Positions 1-7,989 of a DNA stretch of 7,989 nt are shown piece after piece. The stretch spans positions 1 through 7,989 of IMG/VR virus record IMGVR_UViG_2630968500_000011; one strand, 5' to 3'. A program made the translations under genes and the position numbers. The DNA comes from a virus. Taxonomy: Duplodnaviria; Heunggongvirae; Uroviricota; Caudoviricetes. Position 1 is the first letter of the stretch. Every line of letters starts with the position of its first letter. The notes below the pieces were generated by a model. It ran no database searches and was not told where the DNA came from. It was given only the letters and a program-made list of their open reading frames with translations.

Positions 1-26
1 GGTGAAGTCGTTTGGTCATACGACAT
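1..26 (-). CDS. 5' end (8 codons, MSYDQTTS...) of a minus-strand gene that runs off the window start; product unknown
   Basis: ATG at 26..24 on the minus strand, preceded by AGGAG (complement of 32-36) with a 5-nt spacer. Frame is open to position 1. Too short to classify. Confidence 0.25.
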
Positions 27-166
27 AGCCGCTCCTGTAGATCAGAGCGGCGATAGCTGGACCAATGGGAAACATCAGATTATGGCTGGAGTTGTATTCT
101 CTTTACGCCGTGCTTTGGAACAGGCTGAAGTCTTTCCATCAGACCCTGAATGGAAATGGCCTTTTT

Positions 167-412
167 CTATTTGTCCAAATTCGGAGAGTACATTTCAGAA
201 AGTTGGTCAGAAAGTCGCACTCGAAGAGCATCAGCCAACTGTTTTCTGATTTTTTCAGGTAACTCGTCGGCATCGCAGAAACAACAACGCTCGATCATGT
301 TGAAAGCCGATTCGTAGAACTGTTTCTGCTGAGTGTCGCTGAGACAGGAAAAGAGCGACGTTACGATGATTTTATTAATTGCATTATCAAGTTCTTTTTC
401 ATCAAAAGTCAT
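167..412 (-). CDS. hypothetical small protein (81 aa), acidic, with a CCFC motif
   Basis: ORF 167..412 on minus strand. ATG at 412..410 is preceded by AAGGA about 7 nt upstream (complement of ~420-424). Composition looks like a soluble protein. Overlapping plus ORF 65..262 lacks an RBS. No family recognised. Confidence 0.55.
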   Translation of the reverse strand: MTFDEKELDNAINKIIVTSLFSCLSDTQQKQFYESAFNMIERCCFCDADELPEKIRKQLADALRVRLSDQLSEMYSPNLDK

Positions 413-665
413 TTGATTTTCCTTTTATGTATACGGACTTAAAAGGATACCACCGAGCCTGAAGTGGTGAAAAGACAGGCACATAACAGCTAAGTATTTT
501 CAACCAGAGAGAATCCTTAGCGTTGTGGTGAATGCGGCTCAGCGCACGCGGGTTAAGGTTGAGGCTGACAGTCGACCTTCTGTGGATACCCACCCGCCTG
601 GTGTGCAACCTTCGCCAGGCACCGGGAGGCACCCGGCACCACAACTTTATGCTGTGTGTAGTCTT

Positions 666-713
666 GGCGGTACCAGCTTGTACCCTTGCTTCCGGCTGGT
701 ACCGTCCTTTTTA
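666..713 (+). terminator. candidate intrinsic terminator / leader hairpin upstream of the operon
   Basis: 12-bp stem 666-677 / 695-706 (one G-U pair), 17-nt loop, followed by CTTTTTA (T-run 708-712). Loop is longer than in typical terminators. Confidence 0.4.
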
Positions 714-801
714 CAAAACAGAGAAGAGCATCACCGGACGACGGGCTCATAACCCAATCCATCCGGGCGGCAGTCACCGCAGGTGTTCTTCTCTGTTTTG
801 T
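713..801 (+). promoter_or_regulatory. leader structure: 15-bp perfect inverted repeat (713-727 ACAAAACAGAGAAGA / 787-801 TCTTCTCTGTTTTGT) enclosing 59 nt, ending 24 nt before the RBS of the first operon gene
   Basis: Arms are exact reverse complements, extendable to about 20 bp with wobble pairs (to 732 / 782). Enclosed segment is GC-rich with internal CCGGA/TCCGG pairing. Function as RNA stem or DNA operator pair is inferred. Confidence 0.45.
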
Positions 802-835
802 GGAGAAACTAATATCTTGTGCAGAGGAAAATAGA

Positions 836-1753
836 ATGAAATTACCAAAATTTCGTAACGCAATTGTGTACCGAGCAACATTACCTAGTATACAGGCTAT
901 TGAAGGGCATCTTCTCGAACTCCCTTATTCTGAAATCGGGGAAACAGAATTTTCACGGTCCTCTTTTGTAGAGAATCCTGTCACTGGTGAACTGGTAACT
1001 CCGATATCTGGTGGGTACGCAATGGTAATCCGTCATGATCAGAAAATAATTCCCCGACATGTCGTCATGAAAGAAGCTAATTCTCGAATCCAAACAATCG
1101 AAAATATGTCCGGGAATAAATTAAAGCGTGCCGAACGACTGGCCATTATTGATAACGTACGAGTAGATCTATGCAAACAGGCATTTGTTAAGTCTACGCT
1201 GATTCTTGCATTGTACAGCACTGATGAGAAATTATTGGTAATCAACACAACCAATAAAATAATAGCCGGTATGGTATGCGCAATGCTGATTAAGGTTGTC
1301 GGTTCAGTGAAAACAGAAACAATCAACATCAGTGATATCAAGAATGGACTGACTACACGCCTGAAGAACTACATCAATGGTGCAGCCAATGCATTTGAAG
1401 GATTCACTGTCGGGAATTATATTCAGCTATCACGCTACGCAGATCAAAAGGAAATTATTCGCTACTCAGCTGAGCATGAGTCAATTCAAAGCGAACTGGC
1501 CGATAGCCTTAGTAGTAGTTTCACTGCTGATAAAATGGAGTTATCCGGTTGCGGTGTGACCTTCATTCTTACCGAAAATTTCCATTTTTCGCGCATCAAT
1601 ACTCAATCTCAGACATTTAATGATGAAGATGATAAAGCATTCCAGTGGCGTCATCAGACTGGCACTGACCTTTTCCAATTCAGCAAGGTAGTTAATTTGA
1701 TGTGTGACCTTCTTTCTTACAAAGAAGATAAAAGCCAAAATCCAACAACTTAA
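836..1753 (+). CDS. RdgC-like recombination-associated protein (305 aa)
   Basis: ATG at 836 with GAGGAAA RBS at 825-831; the track ORF 686..1753 begins upstream without an RBS. N-terminus KFRNAIVYR and the segment AMVIRHDQKIIPRHVVMK resemble the RdgC family (FKNLMVYR and ICARKEEKILPSPVIKQ in E. coli RdgC, recalled from memory). Length matches the family (~303 aa). Confidence 0.75.
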   Translation: MKLPKFRNAIVYRATLPSIQAIEGHLLELPYSEIGETEFSRSSFVENPVTGELVTPISGGYAMVIRHDQKIIPRHVVMKEANSRIQTIENMSGNKLKRAERLAIIDNVRVDLCKQAFVKSTLILALYSTDEKLLVINTTNKIIAGMVCAMLIKVVGSVKTETINISDIKNGLTTRLKNYINGAANAFEGFTVGNYIQLSRYADQKEIIRYSAEHESIQSELADSLSSSFTADKMELSGCGVTFILTENFHFSRINTQSQTFNDEDDKAFQWRHQTGTDLFQFSKVVNLMCDLLSYKEDKSQNPTT

Positions 1754-1757
1754 AAAA

Positions 1758-1801
1758 ATTGCAGCAATCATCCCATGTCAAATGGGCTGGATTGCTGCAA
1801 T
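1758..1801. repeat. 11-bp perfect inverted repeat (ATTGCAGCAAT ... ATTGCTGCAAT) with nested 5-bp inner hairpin (CCCAT/ATGGG), intergenic
   Basis: Arms at 1758-1768 and 1791-1801. Preceded by an A7 run on the plus strand, so on the minus strand the hairpin is followed by a T7 run and looks like an intrinsic terminator facing antisense transcription. Could also be a protein-binding palindrome. Confidence 0.5.
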
Positions 1802-1842
1802 CAAAATTCAGCGCGGTGCAGCGCATATACGTGGAGAACAAA

Positions 1843-2379
1843 ATGTCATTTATTAAAACTTTTTCCGGGAAGCATTTTTATTATGACAGGATAAATAAAG
1901 ACAACATCGATATTAACGATATCGCGGTTTCCCTTTCAAATATCTGTCGCTTTGCCGGCCATCTTTCACACTTCTACAGCGTCGCCCAACATGCGGTGCT
2001 TTGCAGCCAGCTGGTACCGCAGGAATTTGCTTTTGAAGCGTTAATGCATGATGCAACAGAAGCGTATTGCCAGGACATTCCCTCACCACTGAAACGCCTT
2101 CTTCCTGACTATAAACGGATGGAAGAAAAAATAGACGCCGTAATCCGTGAGAAATACGGGTTACCCCCGGTTATGAGTACGCCCGTGAAATATGCCGATC
2201 TCATCATGCTGGCAACCGAACGCCGCGATCTCGGGCTTGATGATGGCTCTTTCTGGCCTGTACTGGAAGGTATCCCGGCAACAGAGATGTTCAAAGTTAT
2301 TCCACTGTCGCCAGGCCATGCCTATGGGATGTTTATGGAACGTTTTAACGAGTTATCGGAGTTACGCAAATGCGCATGA
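1843..2379 (+). CDS. yfdR: HD-domain 5'-deoxynucleotidase, YfdR/YfbR family (178 aa)
   Basis: ATG at 1843 with GGAGAA RBS at 1833-1838; the track start at 1759 would cover the palindrome and has no RBS. HD-superfamily motifs present: H in VAQHAVL, HD in LMHDATEAY, downstream Asp residues. Length and MSFIKTFSGKHFYYD N-terminus match my recollection of E. coli CPS-53 YfdR. Confidence 0.8.
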   Translation: MSFIKTFSGKHFYYDRINKDNIDINDIAVSLSNICRFAGHLSHFYSVAQHAVLCSQLVPQEFAFEALMHDATEAYCQDIPSPLKRLLPDYKRMEEKIDAVIREKYGLPPVMSTPVKYADLIMLATERRDLGLDDGSFWPVLEGIPATEMFKVIPLSPGHAYGMFMERFNELSELRKCA

Positions 2380-3017
2380 ATGTTTTCGAAATGGAAGGGT
2401 TTCTTCGCGGGAAATGTGTACCGCGAGATCTGAAAGTGAACGAAACAAACGCTGAATATCTGGTGCGTAAATTTGCTGAAGCGGAGGCCAAGATTTCGGC
2501 TCTGTCCGAAGACCACCAGAAAGCGATTGAGTCAATTAAGCAGGCTGATTCGGCTGTTAAGTTGGCACACGAGAAGTTTTCAGCGCTGGCGGCGGAGAAT
2601 GCGGGGCTGAAGTCATTTGGCGACAAGCTTAATGAGATGCATAACGACTTAAACGGCGAAGGCACGGGCATTCAGGGGCGCGCAGAGGTAGCGTGCCAGC
2701 AGGTGGCTCTTGAAGCGGCAATGGAAGAATTTGACGCTATCAAAACTCCAGCCACCGACGCCTTCCTGGATGAAGTGCGGGCGGATGCTCGCAACGAGGG
2801 GATTAACTATACCGCCAGCCGCCTCGCTGCCGCATTCAATCATGGTTTCGTTGATAAGCCGCTGGCTGAAGTCTGCGACGTGGTGCGCATGATTCTGGAC
2901 ACCAAAGAAGAACTGGCAAACTCCACGCTCCCATCGGCTGATGGGATTTCTGGCGAGTACGCAGAGAAGTTTCTCGCAGAGTTCGCCGCCCAACTTCGCC
3001 AGGAGCCAGCCCAATGA
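2370..3017 (+). CDS. hypothetical phage protein, Ala/Glu-rich and probably helical (215 aa)
   Basis: ATG at 2370 with GGAG at 2358-2361 (8-nt spacer); an alternative ATG at 2376 forms an ATGA overlap with the yfdR stop (2377-2379). Stop overlaps the next start (ATGA at 3014-3017). No family recognised. Confidence 0.65.
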   Translation: MRMNVFEMEGFLRGKCVPRDLKVNETNAEYLVRKFAEAEAKISALSEDHQKAIESIKQADSAVKLAHEKFSALAAENAGLKSFGDKLNEMHNDLNGEGTGIQGRAEVACQQVALEAAMEEFDAIKTPATDAFLDEVRADARNEGINYTASRLAAAFNHGFVDKPLAEVCDVVRMILDTKEELANSTLPSADGISGEYAEKFLAEFAAQLRQEPAQ

Positions 3018-3547
3018 GTATCGACAAACAGGCGCTGCGTGAAATCGCAGCGGCAGCAGTTGGCGCACATGAGCGCCTTAGTGTTATGCCGCCTGATGAC
3101 ATTTTCGATATCTCACTGGCAGAAGGAACTCAGCTTGATGCAGATATCACTGCCTTGAACGCGCTGAACTCCGCAGCAAACCCCACTACCGTGCTGGCGA
3201 TGCTGGATGAGTTGGAAGCCGCAAAAAAGCGCATAGCAGAACTGGAGGGGGGCGCATTCAATCCCGCAATTCTTGATGTGGTAGCAGAACGCCAGCGGCA
3301 ACAGTCGGTTGAAGGATGGACTCCTGAACATGACAACGCATATCAAAATAGCGAATTAGCAGATGCAGCGGCTTGTTACGCAATTCATGCGCACAACCAA
3401 GGTTTCTCCACTCCAGCACATTGGCCGTGGTCTCCTGACTGGTGGAAGCAATCAGGAGCACGCCGCGACTTAGTAAAAGCTGGCGCTCTTATTCTGGCAG
3501 AAATTGAACGTATTGACCGCGCCGCTGGCATTGGTAAGGGGGAGTGA
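3014..3547 (+). CDS. Ea22-like (ead) phage protein with a DUF550-like C-terminal region (177 aa)
   Basis: N-terminus MSIDKQALREIAAAA and the segment NPTTVLAMLDELEAAKKRIAELE resemble ead/Ea22-like proteins of lambdoid phages. C-terminal WTPEHDN...HWPWSPDWWKQSGARRDLVKAGALILAEIERIDRA resembles DUF550. Both recalled from memory. ATGA overlap with the upstream gene. Confidence 0.7.
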   Translation: MSIDKQALREIAAAAVGAHERLSVMPPDDIFDISLAEGTQLDADITALNALNSAANPTTVLAMLDELEAAKKRIAELEGGAFNPAILDVVAERQRQQSVEGWTPEHDNAYQNSELADAAACYAIHAHNQGFSTPAHWPWSPDWWKQSGARRDLVKAGALILAEIERIDRAAGIGKGE

Positions 3548-3978
3548 TGCTTCAACATCAAATGCAGCCAACATTTAACACCTGCATGGCTACCTGCGTT
3601 GCAATGGTTGCCGGTCAACCTGTCGATGAGGTAGTGGAACGCTGGCATCAGAAATTCCACGACAAAACAGACTGGCTCGACGACGCGCTGGATTATTACA
3701 AAATCCCGTATTTTTACGGAAGCCAGCGCAAGGCCGAATTGCTTTACGGGTTTATTTACTTCCTGACCGTTCCGTCACTGAACATCAAAGGCGGCCTGCA
3801 TCAGATTCTGATGTCGTTAACGGCAGAACGCGGCATAGAAGTATTTGACCCGGCAATGGGTCGGCCAGGATCAAAATATTACGTTTGGGGTGAAGCGCAG
3901 AACGATGATCAATTCGGCGTTATCTCCTGGTGCGTCGATTTATCGGTTCCGGTAGTGCAACAGAAAGGTGAGGACTAA
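3547..3978 (+). CDS. putative papain-fold cysteine peptidase, C39-like (143 aa)
   Basis: ATG at 3547 overlaps the upstream stop (TGATG at 3545-3549); the track start at 3544 is GTG. Motif order Q(7)...C(13) in QPTFNTCMATCVAMVAG, then His in GGLHQILMSL, then FDPAMG, matches the C39 peptidase Gln/Cys...His...Asp-Pro arrangement. Functional call is an inference. Confidence 0.5.
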   Translation: MLQHQMQPTFNTCMATCVAMVAGQPVDEVVERWHQKFHDKTDWLDDALDYYKIPYFYGSQRKAELLYGFIYFLTVPSLNIKGGLHQILMSLTAERGIEVFDPAMGRPGSKYYVWGEAQNDDQFGVISWCVDLSVPVVQQKGED

Positions 3979-3981
3979 CCC

Positions 3982-4827
3982 ATGAGCACTATTACCAAAG
4001 AACTGGCAAAGCTGTTCAGAAAAATTACGAATTCTGAAATTGATGCGGAGGGAAACGCTCATGTTGTTTTATCTCCTGCTGATAGCCTCCTGATTAATAA
4101 TGCGCGTATCGCGCTGGCATCGCTCGAAGCGGAGCCTGTGGCGTGGGCGCACAGATTAATCAACAAGCGTAACGGAGTCGTTCACCCTTGGGTTTACGGT
4201 AGCGCAGAGGCGTGTCCAAGCGAGGGGGATATCTTCAATATTGAGGTAATGCCGCTCTACACCGTCCCTCCAGCGCCGGTATCTGTGCCCGCTGCGATGG
4301 AAATGGATGATGACTTTGACAGCGCGTTTGAACACGGAAAAGCTGTCGGCTGGAACGCCTATCGCGCCGCCATGCTTCAGGCCGAACCTGTAAGTAATAG
4401 TGATGAGTTACCGCTGGACTATCTGCAAGGACACAAAGACGGCCTGGAGTGGGCTGCACAATTGGCAGAAGCCAATCATCCGCAAACAGGTGACTGGTTG
4501 TACGATGACCCAATCGATCTTGCCAGGGCGATTCGCAAAGGTCCGGATATGCCTACTGTTCAGGGTGGCAATTCTCCGGTAACTCCGGATGCTTGGATAA
4601 GCTGTAGTGAGCGAATGCCAGAAATGGGAGAGCGACAATGCTATGTGTTAGCAGCTGACTTTAAAAACAACTACCCACCAAACATCCCCAACACTCAGGT
4701 CGGCGTATATGGCGACTGGTTTAATGATGGCAATCCCACTTGGGATGACGGTGATGGCGAAGACCTGTATCTCAAAGAGGTAACCCACTGGATGCCTCTA
4801 CCAGAACCGCCGCAGGAGGTAAAGTGA
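3982..4827 (+). CDS. DUF551-domain phage protein (281 aa)
   Basis: ATG at 3982 with AGGTGAGGA RBS at 3966-3974. C-terminal WISCSERMPE...CYVLAA...VTHWMPLPEPP is the characteristic DUF551 signature. N-terminal two thirds have no recognised family. Confidence 0.75.
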   Translation: MSTITKELAKLFRKITNSEIDAEGNAHVVLSPADSLLINNARIALASLEAEPVAWAHRLINKRNGVVHPWVYGSAEACPSEGDIFNIEVMPLYTVPPAPVSVPAAMEMDDDFDSAFEHGKAVGWNAYRAAMLQAEPVSNSDELPLDYLQGHKDGLEWAAQLAEANHPQTGDWLYDDPIDLARAIRKGPDMPTVQGGNSPVTPDAWISCSERMPEMGERQCYVLAADFKNNYPPNIPNTQVGVYGDWFNDGNPTWDDGDGEDLYLKEVTHWMPLPEPPQEVK

Positions 4828-5399
4828 TGAACAACTTAATGATCGACCTTGAGACGATGGGGAAAAATAAGGATGCGCCGATCGTTTCTATTGGCGCAGT
4901 GTTCTTCACCCCAGAAACCGGAGACATCGGACAAGAATTCTATGCGGCTGTCAGCTTGGACAGTGCTATGGAGCAAGGGGCCACACCTGACGGCGACACC
5001 ATCCTGTGGTGGTTGAAACAAAGCCCTGAAGCACGAGCTGCAATCTGTATTGATGATACTTTGTCGATCAGCGATGCACTCTCTGAACTGAGCCATTTCA
5101 TTAATCGGCACGCAGACAATACGAAATATTTAAAAGTCTGGGGTAACGGAGCCAACTTCGACAACGTAATTTTACGCGGAGCTTATGAGCGAGCAGGACA
5201 AATCTGCCCATGGGCGTACTGGAATGATCACGATGCGCGCACGATCGTTACGCTTGGGCGTTCCATCGGATTCGACCCAAAAATGGACATGCCTTTCGAT
5301 GGCGAACGGCACAACGCCCTGGCTGATGCTCGTCATCAGGCAAAATATGTTTCCGCTATCTGGCAGAAATTAATTCCTGCCACCAGCACAGAATTATGA
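4827..5399 (+). CDS. DEDDh-family 3'-5' exonuclease, Rv2179c-like phage exonuclease (190 aa)
   Basis: ATG at 4827 overlaps the upstream stop (TGATG), with AGGAGG RBS at 4814-4819; track start 4824 is GTG. Exo motifs: MIDLETMG (D, E), WGNGANFD (D), HNALADARH (H...D). TILWWLKQ matches the phage Rv2179c-like subfamily. Confidence 0.8.
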   Translation: MNNLMIDLETMGKNKDAPIVSIGAVFFTPETGDIGQEFYAAVSLDSAMEQGATPDGDTILWWLKQSPEARAAICIDDTLSISDALSELSHFINRHADNTKYLKVWGNGANFDNVILRGAYERAGQICPWAYWNDHDARTIVTLGRSIGFDPKMDMPFDGERHNALADARHQAKYVSAIWQKLIPATSTEL

Positions 5400-5435
5400 T
5401 TTTCCCGGGTGCAGCCGGTTTTGATGGAGAAAATT

Positions 5436-5717
5436 ATGAACACCTTGTTTTTACTGATGGCTGAATTCAATACCCCTAACATTGAACTCTCAGCAGTTAG
5501 CCAAAAGTACTTTGGCATGAGTCCAGCCACGGCAGAAGCAAAAGCAAACGCTTGTAAGTTGCCCGTTCCAACATATCGCATCGGCACATCACAAAAAGCA
5601 AAACGTTGCATCAATATTCAGGATCTTGCGGAATACATAGACAAAAGACGAGAAGAAGGACGTATCGAGTGGGAACAGGTCAGAACAAGCAAACAGAAGG
5701 GCAAAGAACATCACTAA
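5436..5717 (+). CDS. PrtN-family (pyocin-activator-like) DNA-binding protein; probable excisionase/recombination directionality factor or regulator (93 aa)
   Basis: ATG at 5436 with GGAGA at 5426-5430 (5-nt spacer); alternative starts at ATG 5424 and GTG 5409. MNTLFLLMAEF...YFGMSPATAEAKANACKLPVPTYRIG...IQDLAEYIDKRR resembles the PrtN family. Terminal position before a terminator fits an Xis-like role (inference). Confidence 0.7.
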   Translation: MNTLFLLMAEFNTPNIELSAVSQKYFGMSPATAEAKANACKLPVPTYRIGTSQKAKRCINIQDLAEYIDKRREEGRIEWEQVRTSKQKGKEHH

Positions 5718-5720
5718 AGA

Positions 5721-5748
5721 AAAAACCCGCCTAAAGGCGGGTTTTCAA
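5721..5748. terminator. bidirectional rho-independent terminator shared by convergent genes
   Basis: AAAAAACCCGCC-TAAA-GGCGGGTTTTC: GC-rich stem (5725-5731 / 5736-5742), 4-nt loop, T-run on the plus strand and T6 on the minus strand. Lies 4 nt after the plus-strand stop (5715-5717) and 17 nt after the minus-strand stop (5765-5767). Confidence 0.8.
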
Positions 5749-5764
5749 AAAGCACCAGCTATGA

Positions 5765-5938
5765 TCATGCTGCTTTGCGACGACGAAGCTTACCCTGCTG
5801 CTCTTTACCAGAGACAGTAGCGTGAGTGAACGCATTAGGAGCAGCCTTCATCAGAACTTCAACAGCAGCACCCATACCTGCGAATGCTTTCATTGTGTCG
5901 AACTTAACCTGTGGCTTGGTTGCTTTTTGATCTTTCAT
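5765..5938 (-). CDS. small basic protein, 57 aa (MKDQKATKPQVKFDTMKAFAGMGAAVEVLMKAAPNAFTHATVSGKEQQGKLRRRKAA); function unknown
   Basis: Not in the ORF track. Hand translation of the minus strand: ATG at 5938..5936 preceded by GGGAG (complement of 5945-5949) with a 6-nt spacer, stop at 5767..5765, then the strong terminator. No family recognised. Confidence 0.6.
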   Translation of the reverse strand: MKDQKATKPQVKFDTMKAFAGMGAAVEVLMKAAPNAFTHATVSGKEQQGKLRRRKAA

Positions 5939-6008
5939 AGAAAACTCCCGAGACAGTAAAGGCGTCTCTAACCCTCTCTTTAAAGCTAGCTTGTTTCGCT
6001 AACTTATG

Positions 6009-6029
6009 CCAATCGATCATGTCGATTGG
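6009..6029. repeat. 21-bp palindrome CCAATCGA-tcatg-TCGATTGG, candidate operator
   Basis: Perfect 8-bp arms with a 5-nt spacer, about 70-90 bp upstream of the small-ORF start. No adjacent T-run, so not a terminator. Confidence 0.4.
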
Positions 6030-6104
6030 TGACATCGTTTCTTAGTAGTTTAAGCACAAAACGACTGCCATAGATGTACCTTTAAGGTAATCTGGACGGG
6101 TATC

Positions 6105-6117
6105 CTACAATTTGTAG
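6105..6117. repeat. 13-bp palindrome CTACAA-t-TTGTAG
   Basis: 6-bp perfect arms around a single central base, 18 bp downstream of the stop of the minus-strand 177-aa gene. Could be a binding site or a weak hairpin. Confidence 0.3.
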
Positions 6118-6134
6118 ACCCTTCTCGTCTATAC

Positions 6135-6668
6135 CTACTGAGCAAATTTAAGAAAGATATCCTGCAGCTCATCAATGACTGCAGACATCACATAACCGCA
6201 CTGTTCCATGCGGAAACCAAAAGACTCGTAATACTGCACCAGTTCTGGTACTGGCTCTACAATGTGGACAACTTTACATTCAACAGCTTTACAAAATATA
6301 AAAGCACTCATAAGAGTGAGTAAAACCATGCGCCCTTTCAATGGGTGAGATTCATCTTCTCTAGAAAACCTTTCGATCATATGGATACGAAAGATGTTTT
6401 CTTCAACCCCATAAACACAAATTGCTGCTCCTGATGGTATTCCCTGAACCCGACCTTGCTGAACAAGTTTTATGCAGAACTCATACTTTTCTCTGGAGTT
6501 GCCATAGGTACTTAACGCATAGTCCCATTCAAGCTCACCATAGCCACCACACAGAATCTTGTAATCATCATCACTGAGCGGACCAACAGCAAGAGGTAAG
6601 CCGACATGATCAATAATCAACTGGATATTGTTACGTACTGATTGACCTATCTCGTCCAGGGTAAGCAT
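6135..6668 (-). CDS. hypothetical protein (177 aa), AT-rich gene; tentative GNAT-related / acyltransferase-like fold
   Basis: ORF 6135..6671 minus; the second ATG (6668..6666) is better placed behind GAGAGG. The ELEWDY and IERFSRE segments and a C-terminal beta-alpha pattern (KVVHIVEPVPELVQYYESFGF) loosely resemble GNAT-fold or LuxI-type acyltransferases. Weak, memory-based. Confidence 0.6.
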   Translation of the reverse strand: MLTLDEIGQSVRNNIQLIIDHVGLPLAVGPLSDDDYKILCGGYGELEWDYALSTYGNSREKYEFCIKLVQQGRVQGIPSGAAICVYGVEENIFRIHMIERFSREDESHPLKGRMVLLTLMSAFIFCKAVECKVVHIVEPVPELVQYYESFGFRMEQCGYVMSAVIDELQDIFLKFAQ

Positions 6669-6700
6669 CATGGCCTCTCAAGCGGAACACTAAAAGTCGC

Positions 6701-6706
6701 ATTATA
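6701..6706 (-). promoter_or_regulatory. candidate -10 hexamer (TATAAT on minus strand) for the 177-aa gene
   Basis: Perfect TATAAT on the minus strand, 29 nt upstream of the start codon. No convincing -35 element. Confidence 0.25.
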
Positions 6707-7218
6707 TCTCATTCTTAAGCCGCGTATGGATTACACCTTGAAATGAAAACGCCGGGTTCCCAATAGGCTCCCACAGAGTGTATAACTACTTGTTTTTCAA
6801 CAACGGTACATCCTATCGAGCATTGGTGCAACGCTAAACCGACCACTCCAGTGAACGTCAGTTTTTTCAGGCATTGCGCTGGTTTGGTTGATTTTTTGCA
6901 TTTCAGAATTACCGTGCATTTTCAAATGTAGAGATTATTTTATCGATATATCATGGGGTTATGTTATTCAGCATCACTGTTCAGGAGGCTCAATAGCGGG
7001 GTACTATACCATAACAACAGGAAGCGCCTGTCTCATTGCAAAAGAAAATTGAGATCCTCTCAAGGCATGAAGCTCTCACGAAGTGATGGAAATAATCTTA
7101 TTAGCCGTTAACTTTGTTAAGGCCAATGATAAACAATCCAGGTTCGACGATAAATAAAAAATCACACATTAAACTCTGGTAATATATCTCCCTGCTAATA
7201 GCATTGATAGAGAAAAAA

Positions 7219-7245
7219 GAACCCAATAAATATTGGGTCCTTTTA
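7219..7245. terminator. candidate intrinsic terminator downstream of the truncated minus-strand gene (bidirectional-looking)
   Basis: Stem ACCCAA / TTGGGT (7221-7226 / 7233-7238) with 6-nt loop. Flanked by TCTTTTTTCT on the minus strand and CCTTTT on the plus strand. Lies 37 nt downstream of the stop at 7282-7284. Confidence 0.5.
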
Positions 7246-7281
7246 TATAATGCCTTCCATACTATCGAAGAACTTCACATA

Positions 7282-7989
7282 TTATTTCTCCGATTTAACC
7301 CCGAACAAATCATAAATTAATTTAGAAGTGTCTGTAAGTATTTTAATCTCTTCCTTTGAGGTTGGGTCAAACGACTTCGCGAAGCTAATTAATTGTGGTG
7401 CAGCATCTCGCATTTTGCTTAAAATATCAGGATCGAGCGTTCCTTCATTCACCAGATGTGACATCTTATCCAGATAGCCATCAAAATTCATTTCTCCCCC
7501 ATCAGCCAGACGCTTCATCTCTCCCAGGTACTTCTTCATATCACGTTGAGATAATTTTTCAAACTGAGCTTTCAGGTAGCTCTCATTATTTTCATTAATA
7601 TACACTGTTTCTGATAAATCTGCGTAGGCACTAGAATATGAAAGTGAAATTAACAGCGAAGCAAATAATTTTAAGCTGTTGTCATCATGTTCCTGGCAGG
7701 CATTAACAAACGTTAAAAAACCAGAACCTATTGCTTGAAAATGTATATTCGCTAAAGGTTCATTATCCTTAGATTCCTCATAAAATAGCTGAACCGTGGA
7801 GGGAAGGTCATTCTTAGTTTCTACATCAAAAGTACATTGTTCAATGGGCATTGCATCTTTATTATCCCCAAGATTACATATACTATTAATCGCGAAATGA
7901 AAAATAGCCCGGTCAACAACTGATGCAATAAAGTCACGATCGTTTAAATCCTCATCAGTGCAATCGTCAATATACTTATTGACCCACAT
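7282..7989 (-). CDS. C-terminal part (at least 235 aa) of a hypothetical protein on AT-rich DNA; gene continues beyond the window end
   Basis: Minus-strand frame open from the window edge to TAA at 7284..7282. Coding-like composition. The Met at the edge may be internal. No family recognised. Confidence 0.6.
   Translation of the reverse strand: MWVNKYIDDCTDEDLNDRDFIASVVDRAIFHFAINSICNLGDNKDAMPIEQCTFDVETKNDLPSTVQLFYEESKDNEPLANIHFQAIGSGFLTFVNACQEHDDNSLKLFASLLISLSYSSAYADLSETVYINENNESYLKAQFEKLSQRDMKKYLGEMKRLADGGEMNFDGYLDKMSHLVNEGTLDPDILSKMRDAAPQLISFAKSFDPTSKEEIKILTDTSKLIYDLFGVKSEK

Follow-up and report, generated by a model that had tools for sequence, protein, structure and literature searches.

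The DNA studied here is a stretch of 7,989 nucleotides from a virus of the Caudoviricetes (IMG/VR virus record IMGVR_UViG_2630968500_000011, positions 1 to 7,989), and this whole stretch is called the window. The gene of interest encodes a protein of 143 amino acids (aa), which a reading of the sequence alone (the original prediction) proposed to be a stand-alone C39-like cysteine peptidase. In textbooks, C39 peptidases appear as accessories of the exporters of bacteriocins and quorum peptides. The open reading frame (ORF) was found at exactly the proposed position on the + strand, and the residues named as its motifs (Q7, C13, H85 in GGLHQ, and D101-P102) are numbered correctly. RefSeq lists the same coding sequence (CDS) as WP_000939115.1, 'hypothetical protein'. 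The gene, its junction with the upstream gene, and the codons of its predicted active site are listed below; the reference for the residue alignment is the C39 domain of CvaB, the colicin V exporter.

3547..3978, + strand: CDS of the predicted stand-alone C39-like cysteine peptidase, 143 aa, ATG at 3547 and TAA at 3976-3978
3536..3549, + strand: coupling junction, as read from the sequence
3565..3567, + strand: codon of Gln7, predicted oxyanion-hole residue six before the catalytic Cys; invariant, aligned with CvaB Gln26
3583..3585, + strand: codon of Cys13, predicted nucleophile; invariant, aligned with CvaB Cys32
3799..3801, + strand: codon of His85 (GGLHQ), predicted general base; invariant, aligned with CvaB His105
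3847..3852, + strand: codons of Asp101-Pro102, predicted third triad residue and obligatory Pro; invariant, aligned with CvaB Asp121-Pro122

The TGA of the upstream Ead/Ea22-like gene (3545-3547) and the ATG of the peptidase gene (3547-3549) share one base, and the purine-rich, Shine-Dalgarno-like AAGGGGGAG precedes this ATG at 3536-3544. Because of this overlap and the preceding AAGGGGGAG, the junction is consistent with translational coupling of the peptidase gene to the Ea22-like gene, as had been suggested. The absence of a transporter domain was also stated correctly, as the 143-aa protein lacks any hydrophobic segment (Kyte-Doolittle maximum of 1.12 in a 19-aa window). In the Pfam scan and the hydropathy profile, the protein showed neither a signal peptide or transmembrane segment nor a domain for cell-wall binding. 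Its N-terminus consists of only six residues ahead of the oxyanion Gln, and an N-terminal delivery or entry domain (PAAR, Rhs, CdiA) is absent.

The protein belongs to phrog_4049, a phage protein family without an annotated function. Residues 1-140 align with positions 2-144 of the 145-position phrog_4049 profile (E 6.9e-52, 176 bits), and an independent phage annotation likewise gives phrog 4049 to a homologue. A word-indexed search found 27 relatives only, all of them enterobacterial. An exhaustive profile search, in which 50%-identity representatives of metagenomic sequences were counted, found 712 clusters at E<=1e-3, of which 359 reached E<=1e-10. The length is 130-160 aa for nearly all of the 150 clusters that were listed. 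In tblastn, the family was present in 195 sequenced genomes of cultured phages that infect Vibrio, Escherichia, Salmonella, Pseudomonas, Erwinia, Klebsiella, and other hosts. Virulent carriers are also among them, such as Kuttervirus, Vequintavirinae, Seuratvirus, Samunavirus, and Enhodamvirus. The genes of the relatives are located in regions of early genes or of DNA metabolism in many unrelated gammaproteobacterial phages, temperate as well as virulent, and the family proteins in sequenced phages are annotated as hypothetical, as is the window protein. A few relatives have C-terminal CxxC zinc-ribbon tails (P0080, 229 aa; P0052, 188 aa), for which the Pfam matches are weak (Zn_ribbon_8, E 6.5e-4; Lar restriction-alleviation-like, E 0.035). 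Unassigned N-terminal extensions of about 80-115 aa are found in P0160, P0078, and P0125. Domain fusions were considered as a clue to function and set aside, as they offered nothing beyond the weak zinc-ribbon tails.

The only invariant columns in an alignment of 114 family sequences, which has a mean column identity of 24%, are Q7, C13, H85, D101, and P102. In a second, independent MAFFT alignment of 143 sequences, H85, D101, and P102 are present in all 143, and Q7 and C13 in every sequence without a gap at the position. The Gln...Cys/His/Asp-Pro order pointed out in the original prediction is therefore made up of the only residues that are invariant in both family alignments, and this putative catalytic signature is far above chance. 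Its order and spacing, Q-x5-C ... H-x15-D-P, are complete in the protein, as in C39 (MEROPS C39/PF03412). Cys13 opens a C-x3-C-x-A-M motif that is common to transporter C39 domains, and D101-P102 is part of a D-P-x-x-G motif, 16 residues past His85. According to the mutagenesis of CvaB, the catalytic triad consists of Cys32, His105, and Asp121, protease activity requires Pro122, and Gln26, the equivalent of papain Gln19, is functionally important (PMC3335142).

Kinship to C39 peptidases is also detected in the sequences of the family. PF03412 Peptidase_C39 is matched at E<=1 by 41 of the 114 aligned relatives, and other papain-clan families (C39_2, C58/YopT, DUF3335, and phytochelatin synthase) are matched by fewer of them. 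Two relatives exceed the Pfam gathering cutoff of 22 bits for PF03412, namely P0140 with 27.9 bits and P0134 with 26.2 bits, the latter being co-linear on profile positions 3-113 of 133. For a direct comparison, the N-terminus of CvaB (100% identical to annotated plasmids) was taken as the reference C39 domain and a profile was built from its homologues. The alignment of the phage family with this profile by hhalign reached a probability of 95.5% (E 1.6e-8), and reversed-profile controls gave 0.1-0.2%. Residues Q7/C13/C17/A19/M20/H85/D101/P102/G105 are paired with CvaB Q26/C32/C36/A38/M39/H105/D121/P122/G125, and all nine of these CvaB residues are conserved in the C39 profile. This profile match and the invariant active-site set support the proposal of a stand-alone C39-like cysteine peptidase.

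The structure predicted by AlphaFold2 (AF2) from the 114-sequence alignment has a predicted local distance difference test (pLDDT) score of 95.4 and a predicted template modelling (pTM) score of 0.89. The 19-sequence alignment gave an unusable model (pLDDT 56). In the model from the deeper alignment, C13 is the first residue, or cap, of helix 13-22, H85 lies where beta-strand 84-92 begins, and D101 comes after the strand that follows. The model thus has the papain-like alpha+beta fold of a C39 peptidase domain, and the predicted placement of C13, H85, and D101 on its helix and strands is that of papain. In structure comparison, the figures are 9.6 for the ComA peptidase domain, 9.4 for both LahT150 and PCAT1, 9.0 for PeiR, 8.9 for a 'C39-like peptidase' (3erv), and 8.1 for the C39 toxin StbD-CT. 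Staphopain, the phytochelatin-synthase-like Alr0975, Josephins, UFM1 proteases, and viral PLpro are lower. Foldseek puts PCAT1 in first place. The best hits in a library of viral structures are to phage proteins of this same family that are themselves uncharacterised (TM up to 0.89), and a further match is a 143-aa 'Peptidase C39 domain-containing protein' of Bacillus phage vB_BcoS-136 (A0A3G3BVL7, Foldseek E 8e-5). The window protein is very probably an enzyme of the C39 type that has a papain fold and an intact active site, and it is likely to be a peptidase.

The peptidase gene lies in a prophage. The window is 100% identical to a stretch of E. coli G5 (NZ_CP060065.1), where a run of + strand genes is located downstream of or beside a cI-like XRE repressor. 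The order is rdgC, yfdR (5'-deoxynucleotidase), a hypothetical gene, the ea22-like gene, the peptidase gene, DUF551, a 3'-5' exonuclease, and a PrtN-like excisionase, so that the peptidase gene is in the distal part. The run stops at a truncated dusA, which is the end of the prophage. The setting is the early-left, pL-type accessory operon of a dusA-integrated lambdoid prophage; the 'phage accessory operon' of the original prediction corresponds to this run beside the repressor, from rdgC to the dusA fragment. The neighboring features in the window are as follows.

525-811, + strand: pseudogene of a 'hypothetical protein', frameshifted and incomplete (RefSeq), just upstream of rdgC, in a stretch with several overlapping ORFs
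3014..3547, + strand: upstream Ead/Ea22-like gene, 177 aa (PF13935, E 4.6e-17)
3982..4827, + strand: downstream DUF551 gene, 281 aa (PF04448, E 4.8e-20)
5765-5938 and 6135-6671, - strand: two cargo genes between the PrtN-like excisionase and the prophage end
6797-6925, - strand: dusA 5' fragment, prophage end and attachment site (RefSeq 'tRNA-dihydrouridine synthase, incomplete')

A second copy of the gene, also 100% identical, is present in E. coli O19:H7 730V1 (locus positions 7944-10374). It lies in another lambdoid prophage, within the nin region, in the order P, ren, ea22, ea22, peptidase gene, DUF551, ninE, and ninG. Because the identical gene recurs there with the same flanks, the Ea22/peptidase/DUF551 block behaves as a mobile cassette that is able to occupy either early operon. 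Full-length copies of the exact gene are rare in E. coli, being found in 8 of 5426 complete genomes. The chromosome of E. coli ABWA45 (NZ_CP022154.1) has seven matches to the 432-nt query, and the median per genome is one; these matches could be several prophages with the gene or partial matches. The DUF551 gene accompanies the peptidase gene in enterobacterial prophages only.

Other genes around the cassette were also noted. The adjacent + strand ORFs 2370-3017 and 3014-3547 overlap by ATGA, and both match phrog_14548 (378 aa), the former at positions 1-195 and the latter at 202-376. Judged by these matches, they look like either the split form of a longer Ea22-like gene or the two parts from which the longer gene was fused. 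One of the two reverse-strand cargo genes encodes a 178-aa protein of phrog_4350 (E 2.3e-103), which has no match in Pfam, NCBIfam, or PADLOC.

A partner gene was sought both in the window and across the family. None of the 120 small-ORF starts in the window fits even a relaxed pattern of a double-glycine leader, so the statement in the original prediction that no leader-peptide substrate is nearby holds. For the family, ORFs were called in 90 loci, and the peptidase ORF was found in 76 of them, which form 17 lineages at 60% identity; three genes on either side were covered per locus. No ABC transporter is among the neighbors of the window peptidase (Ea22-like, DUF551, exonuclease, and RdgC) or is recurrent in the 76 loci. 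Among 241 clusters of neighboring genes, no conserved partner, substrate, or immunity gene was found, as none of the clusters occurs in more than 3 of the 17 lineages. Neighbors of the Ea22-like and DUF551 types are limited to 2 of the 17 lineages, with DUF551 directly downstream in 16 loci. Because no neighboring family is shared more widely, the enzyme appears, as far as gene order can tell, to need no partner and to act on something available in every host.

The most widely shared neighbor is an HslV-family peptidase gene, located one or two genes downstream in Seuratvirus-type phages (8 loci, 3 lineages). An example is found in Escherichia phage CAjan, at locus positions 4150-4614. In lineage 7, the neighbors are a helicase, a VRR-NUC-like nuclease, and NinG.

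We estimate a probability of about 60% that the protein is a soluble, stand-alone cysteine endopeptidase from the C39 branch of the papain clan, that it is catalytically competent, and that it acts in the cytoplasm on a protein supplied by the host. The enzyme is plausibly directed at a host protein, with odds that are even or slightly better. Early after induction or infection, it would be produced in the cytoplasm. His85 would activate and Asp101 orient Cys13, which would then attack a peptide bond of the host protein, with Gln7 forming the oxyanion hole. By analogy with other C39 enzymes, the preferred cut would most likely be beside small residues (Gly-Gly, Gly-Ala, or Gly-Ser). The purpose may be to disable a protein of host function or defence.

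Several results weigh against this reading. A hidden Markov model (HMM) search against PF03412 and PF13529 had been suggested as a check, and its outcome is divided: the window protein itself matches neither family at E<=1, whereas part of the family gives the PF03412 matches described above, including the two above the cutoff. Pfam, NCBIfam, and PADLOC did not return a peptidase for the window protein, and the best of the direct searches are noise, with RhaT at E 0.16 and 0.003, far below the cutoffs. Sequence searches of the PDB with the single sequence, a shallow profile, and a deep profile gave nothing meaningful. The literature search did not find a functional study of phrog_4049. C39-like folds are also used for other chemistries, as in the acyl transfer by BtrH and in phytochelatin synthase (PMC10318531), and a glycosidase-like C39-like protein has been reported (PMC13642728). 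Finally, a phage-encoded substrate may be present elsewhere in the genome, beyond the three genes covered on either side.

The same facts allow other functions to be weighed. The Cys-His-Asp set could catalyse acyl transfer, deamidation, transglutamination, gamma-glutamyl transfer, or glycoside hydrolysis instead of proteolysis. For this, the other chemistries of C39-like folds are a precedent. However, an archaeal protein has Asn in the place of the triad Asp, whereas the phage family keeps the full invariant Q/C/H/D-P set, and its best matches, in sequence as in structure, are without exception C39 domains with proteolytic activity. A non-peptidase is thus quite unlikely. If the protein is a peptidase, it could process a phage precursor, and the Ea22-like protein is the obvious candidate. 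Between its Ead/Ea22 domain (residues 3-78) and its C-terminal domain, which occurs with many other N-termini, an amphipathic helix ends in Gly-Gly at the domain boundary (...RIAELEGG/AFNP, with the slash at the junction), and the two genes are translationally coupled. However, ELEGG is found in the window-type neighbor and one other only and is missing from most upstream neighbors, even inside the same peptidase lineage, so the junction was rejected as a substrate. The restriction of Ea22-like neighbors to two lineages, the lack of a neighboring family in more than three, and the lack of a double-glycine leader ORF in the window also speak against maturation of a phage protein. In addition, the carriers (Kuttervirus, Seuratvirus, Vequintavirinae, lambdoid phages, and Vibrio podophages) otherwise have little in common. 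This function is considered unlikely. A cell-wall hydrolase for lysis or entry, either an endoisopeptidase like PeiR/PeiW or an amidase of the NlpC/P60 or CHAP type, is suggested by the structural match to PeiR. It is extremely improbable, because the protein is without a signal peptide, transmembrane segment, or cell-wall-binding domain, its gene is in early operons distant from holin/endolysin cassettes, and its motifs fit C39 but not C71, CHAP, or NlpC/P60.

Two more specific targets have been considered. Free cytosolic C39 enzymes were shown to be precision toxins that cut GyrB/ParE only in 2025-2026 (PMC12136450; bioRxiv 10.64898/2026.05.07.723447). Cpe1, a type VI secretion system (T6SS) effector of E. 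coli, is a free C39 peptidase that cuts the ATP-lid LHAGG/KF (at the slash) of GyrB and ParE (PMC12136450), and StbD-CT, a CdiA-type toxin, is a free C39 peptidase that makes the same cut (bioRxiv 10.64898/2026.05.07.723447). With this precedent, the host-directed enzyme could be a topoisomerase killer that would stop host DNA topology from being maintained during takeover, although the target is not specifically supported for the phage family. In a three-way hhalign comparison, the phage family scores 90.9% with CvaB, and transporter C39 scores 91.7% with Cpe1tox, whereas the phage family scores only 34.6% with Cpe1tox (E 4e-4; full-length and in register, but weak). Because of these values, the phage family and the GyrB/ParE toxins are, as judged by profile comparison, probably separate offshoots of C39, and a special kinship between them is not seen. 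Synteny with topoisomerase genes was rejected as a general clue, as it is confined to one lineage, that of Kuttervirus. For most carriers, such as lambdoid prophages, Seuratvirus of about 59 kb, and Vibrio podophages of about 40 kb, the regions seen do not encode a type II topoisomerase of the phage. Since lambda-type replication requires host gyrase, the destruction of GyrB would be self-defeating and harm most of the carrier phages themselves. No conserved immunity-like neighbor is seen in the 76 loci of 17 lineages either. GyrB/ParE is unlikely as a general target, and cleavage of the ATP-lid by this family is very improbable. The other target would be the Gly-Gly at the C-terminus of either a ubiquitin-like protein of bacteria or a conjugated CD-NTase (Cap2 of type II CBASS, an anti-phage system that signals by cyclic oligonucleotides, or the Bil/Bub type), the removal or clipping of which would disarm conjugation-dependent immunity. 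Gly-Gly logic, structural matches to Josephins and clippases, and the host range make such a deconjugase attractive. However, the structural likeness to transporter C39 domains exceeds that to any deubiquitinase, a match in PADLOC or a tie to a defence locus is lacking, and a phage-encoded C39-type deconjugase was not found in the literature search. The case is circumstantial, and this activity is improbable.

In Salmonella phage Maynard, a Kuttervirus, the homologue Maynard_191 is encoded between the genes for the large (gp39-like) and medium (gp52-like) subunits of topoisomerase II (locus 1571-5257). The ATPase subunit of this phage has LYAGSNF where bacterial GyrB has LHAGGKF.

The cytoplasmic endopeptidase reading has a tentative extension, in which phrog_4049 would be the first phage family of C39-type proteases for host takeover or counter-defence, expressed early and cutting a conserved gammaproteobacterial protein site-specifically at a Gly-Gly-type site. 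Possible targets in this speculative scheme are conjugates in a defence system (ubiquitin-like or CD-NTase), some other protein of immunity, or an essential enzyme, GyrB/ParE being an example. The self-sufficiency of the family might then have allowed its horizontal spread to unrelated phages, both temperate and virulent. If a host protein is indeed cut, the family would represent a new class of phage takeover or anti-defence factors and a source of sequence-specific proteases. The enzyme class is already known and its kind is unsurprising in itself; its stand-alone use as a phage early gene is the new aspect. A large and almost wholly 'hypothetical' phage family is now placed in the enzyme class of the free C39 toxins, and it combines an invariant, intact active site with no co-encoded substrate found. 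If it cuts a host protein, a gene present in many phage genomes would also gain a functional annotation, and the family is widespread, cleanly defined, and experimentally tractable.

The C39 domains of CvaB, ComA, LahT, and PCAT1 (MEROPS C39, PF03412) are fused to an ABC transporter of the AMS/PCAT type. The phage enzyme, in contrast, is unfused, with neither a transporter nor a gene for a double-glycine leader nearby, and it is encoded in an early phage operon. The phage family also has motifs of its own that are absent from the transporters, V-P-S-L-N ahead of the His and Y112. Small single-domain C39-like proteins without a transporter are seen in other phages as well. Pantoea phage Nufs112 ORF66 and Shewanella phage S0112_034 were automatically labelled 'C39 family peptidase' in two genome papers, and the comparison with these two is by label only; A0A3G3BVL7 is a further protein of this kind. 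The two phrog_4049 members above the Pfam C39 cutoff would receive the same 'C39' label.

The Josephin deubiquitinases or 'clippases' (BpJOS, PaJOS, and PcJOS) are less similar to the phage enzyme than C39 domains are and give no sequence-level signal, and no ubiquitin-like substrate was found in the setting of the phage enzyme. The C71 endoisopeptidases PeiR and PeiW combine cell-wall-binding repeats with a C71 domain and act in lysis, whereas the phage enzyme has none of these features. Neither of the papers on the free C39 toxins links this family to phages ('phage' appears zero times in the main text on Cpe1 and once in the StbD preprint). Cpe1 of E. coli ATCC 11775 is a protein of 479 aa with a PAAR domain and an adjoining immunity gene. 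Unlike Cpe1 and StbD-CT, the phage enzyme carries no delivery or entry domain and is not followed by a conserved small gene that could serve as an immunity candidate. Instead of being injected by a competitor, as Cpe1 and StbD-CT are, the phage enzyme is made inside the cell.

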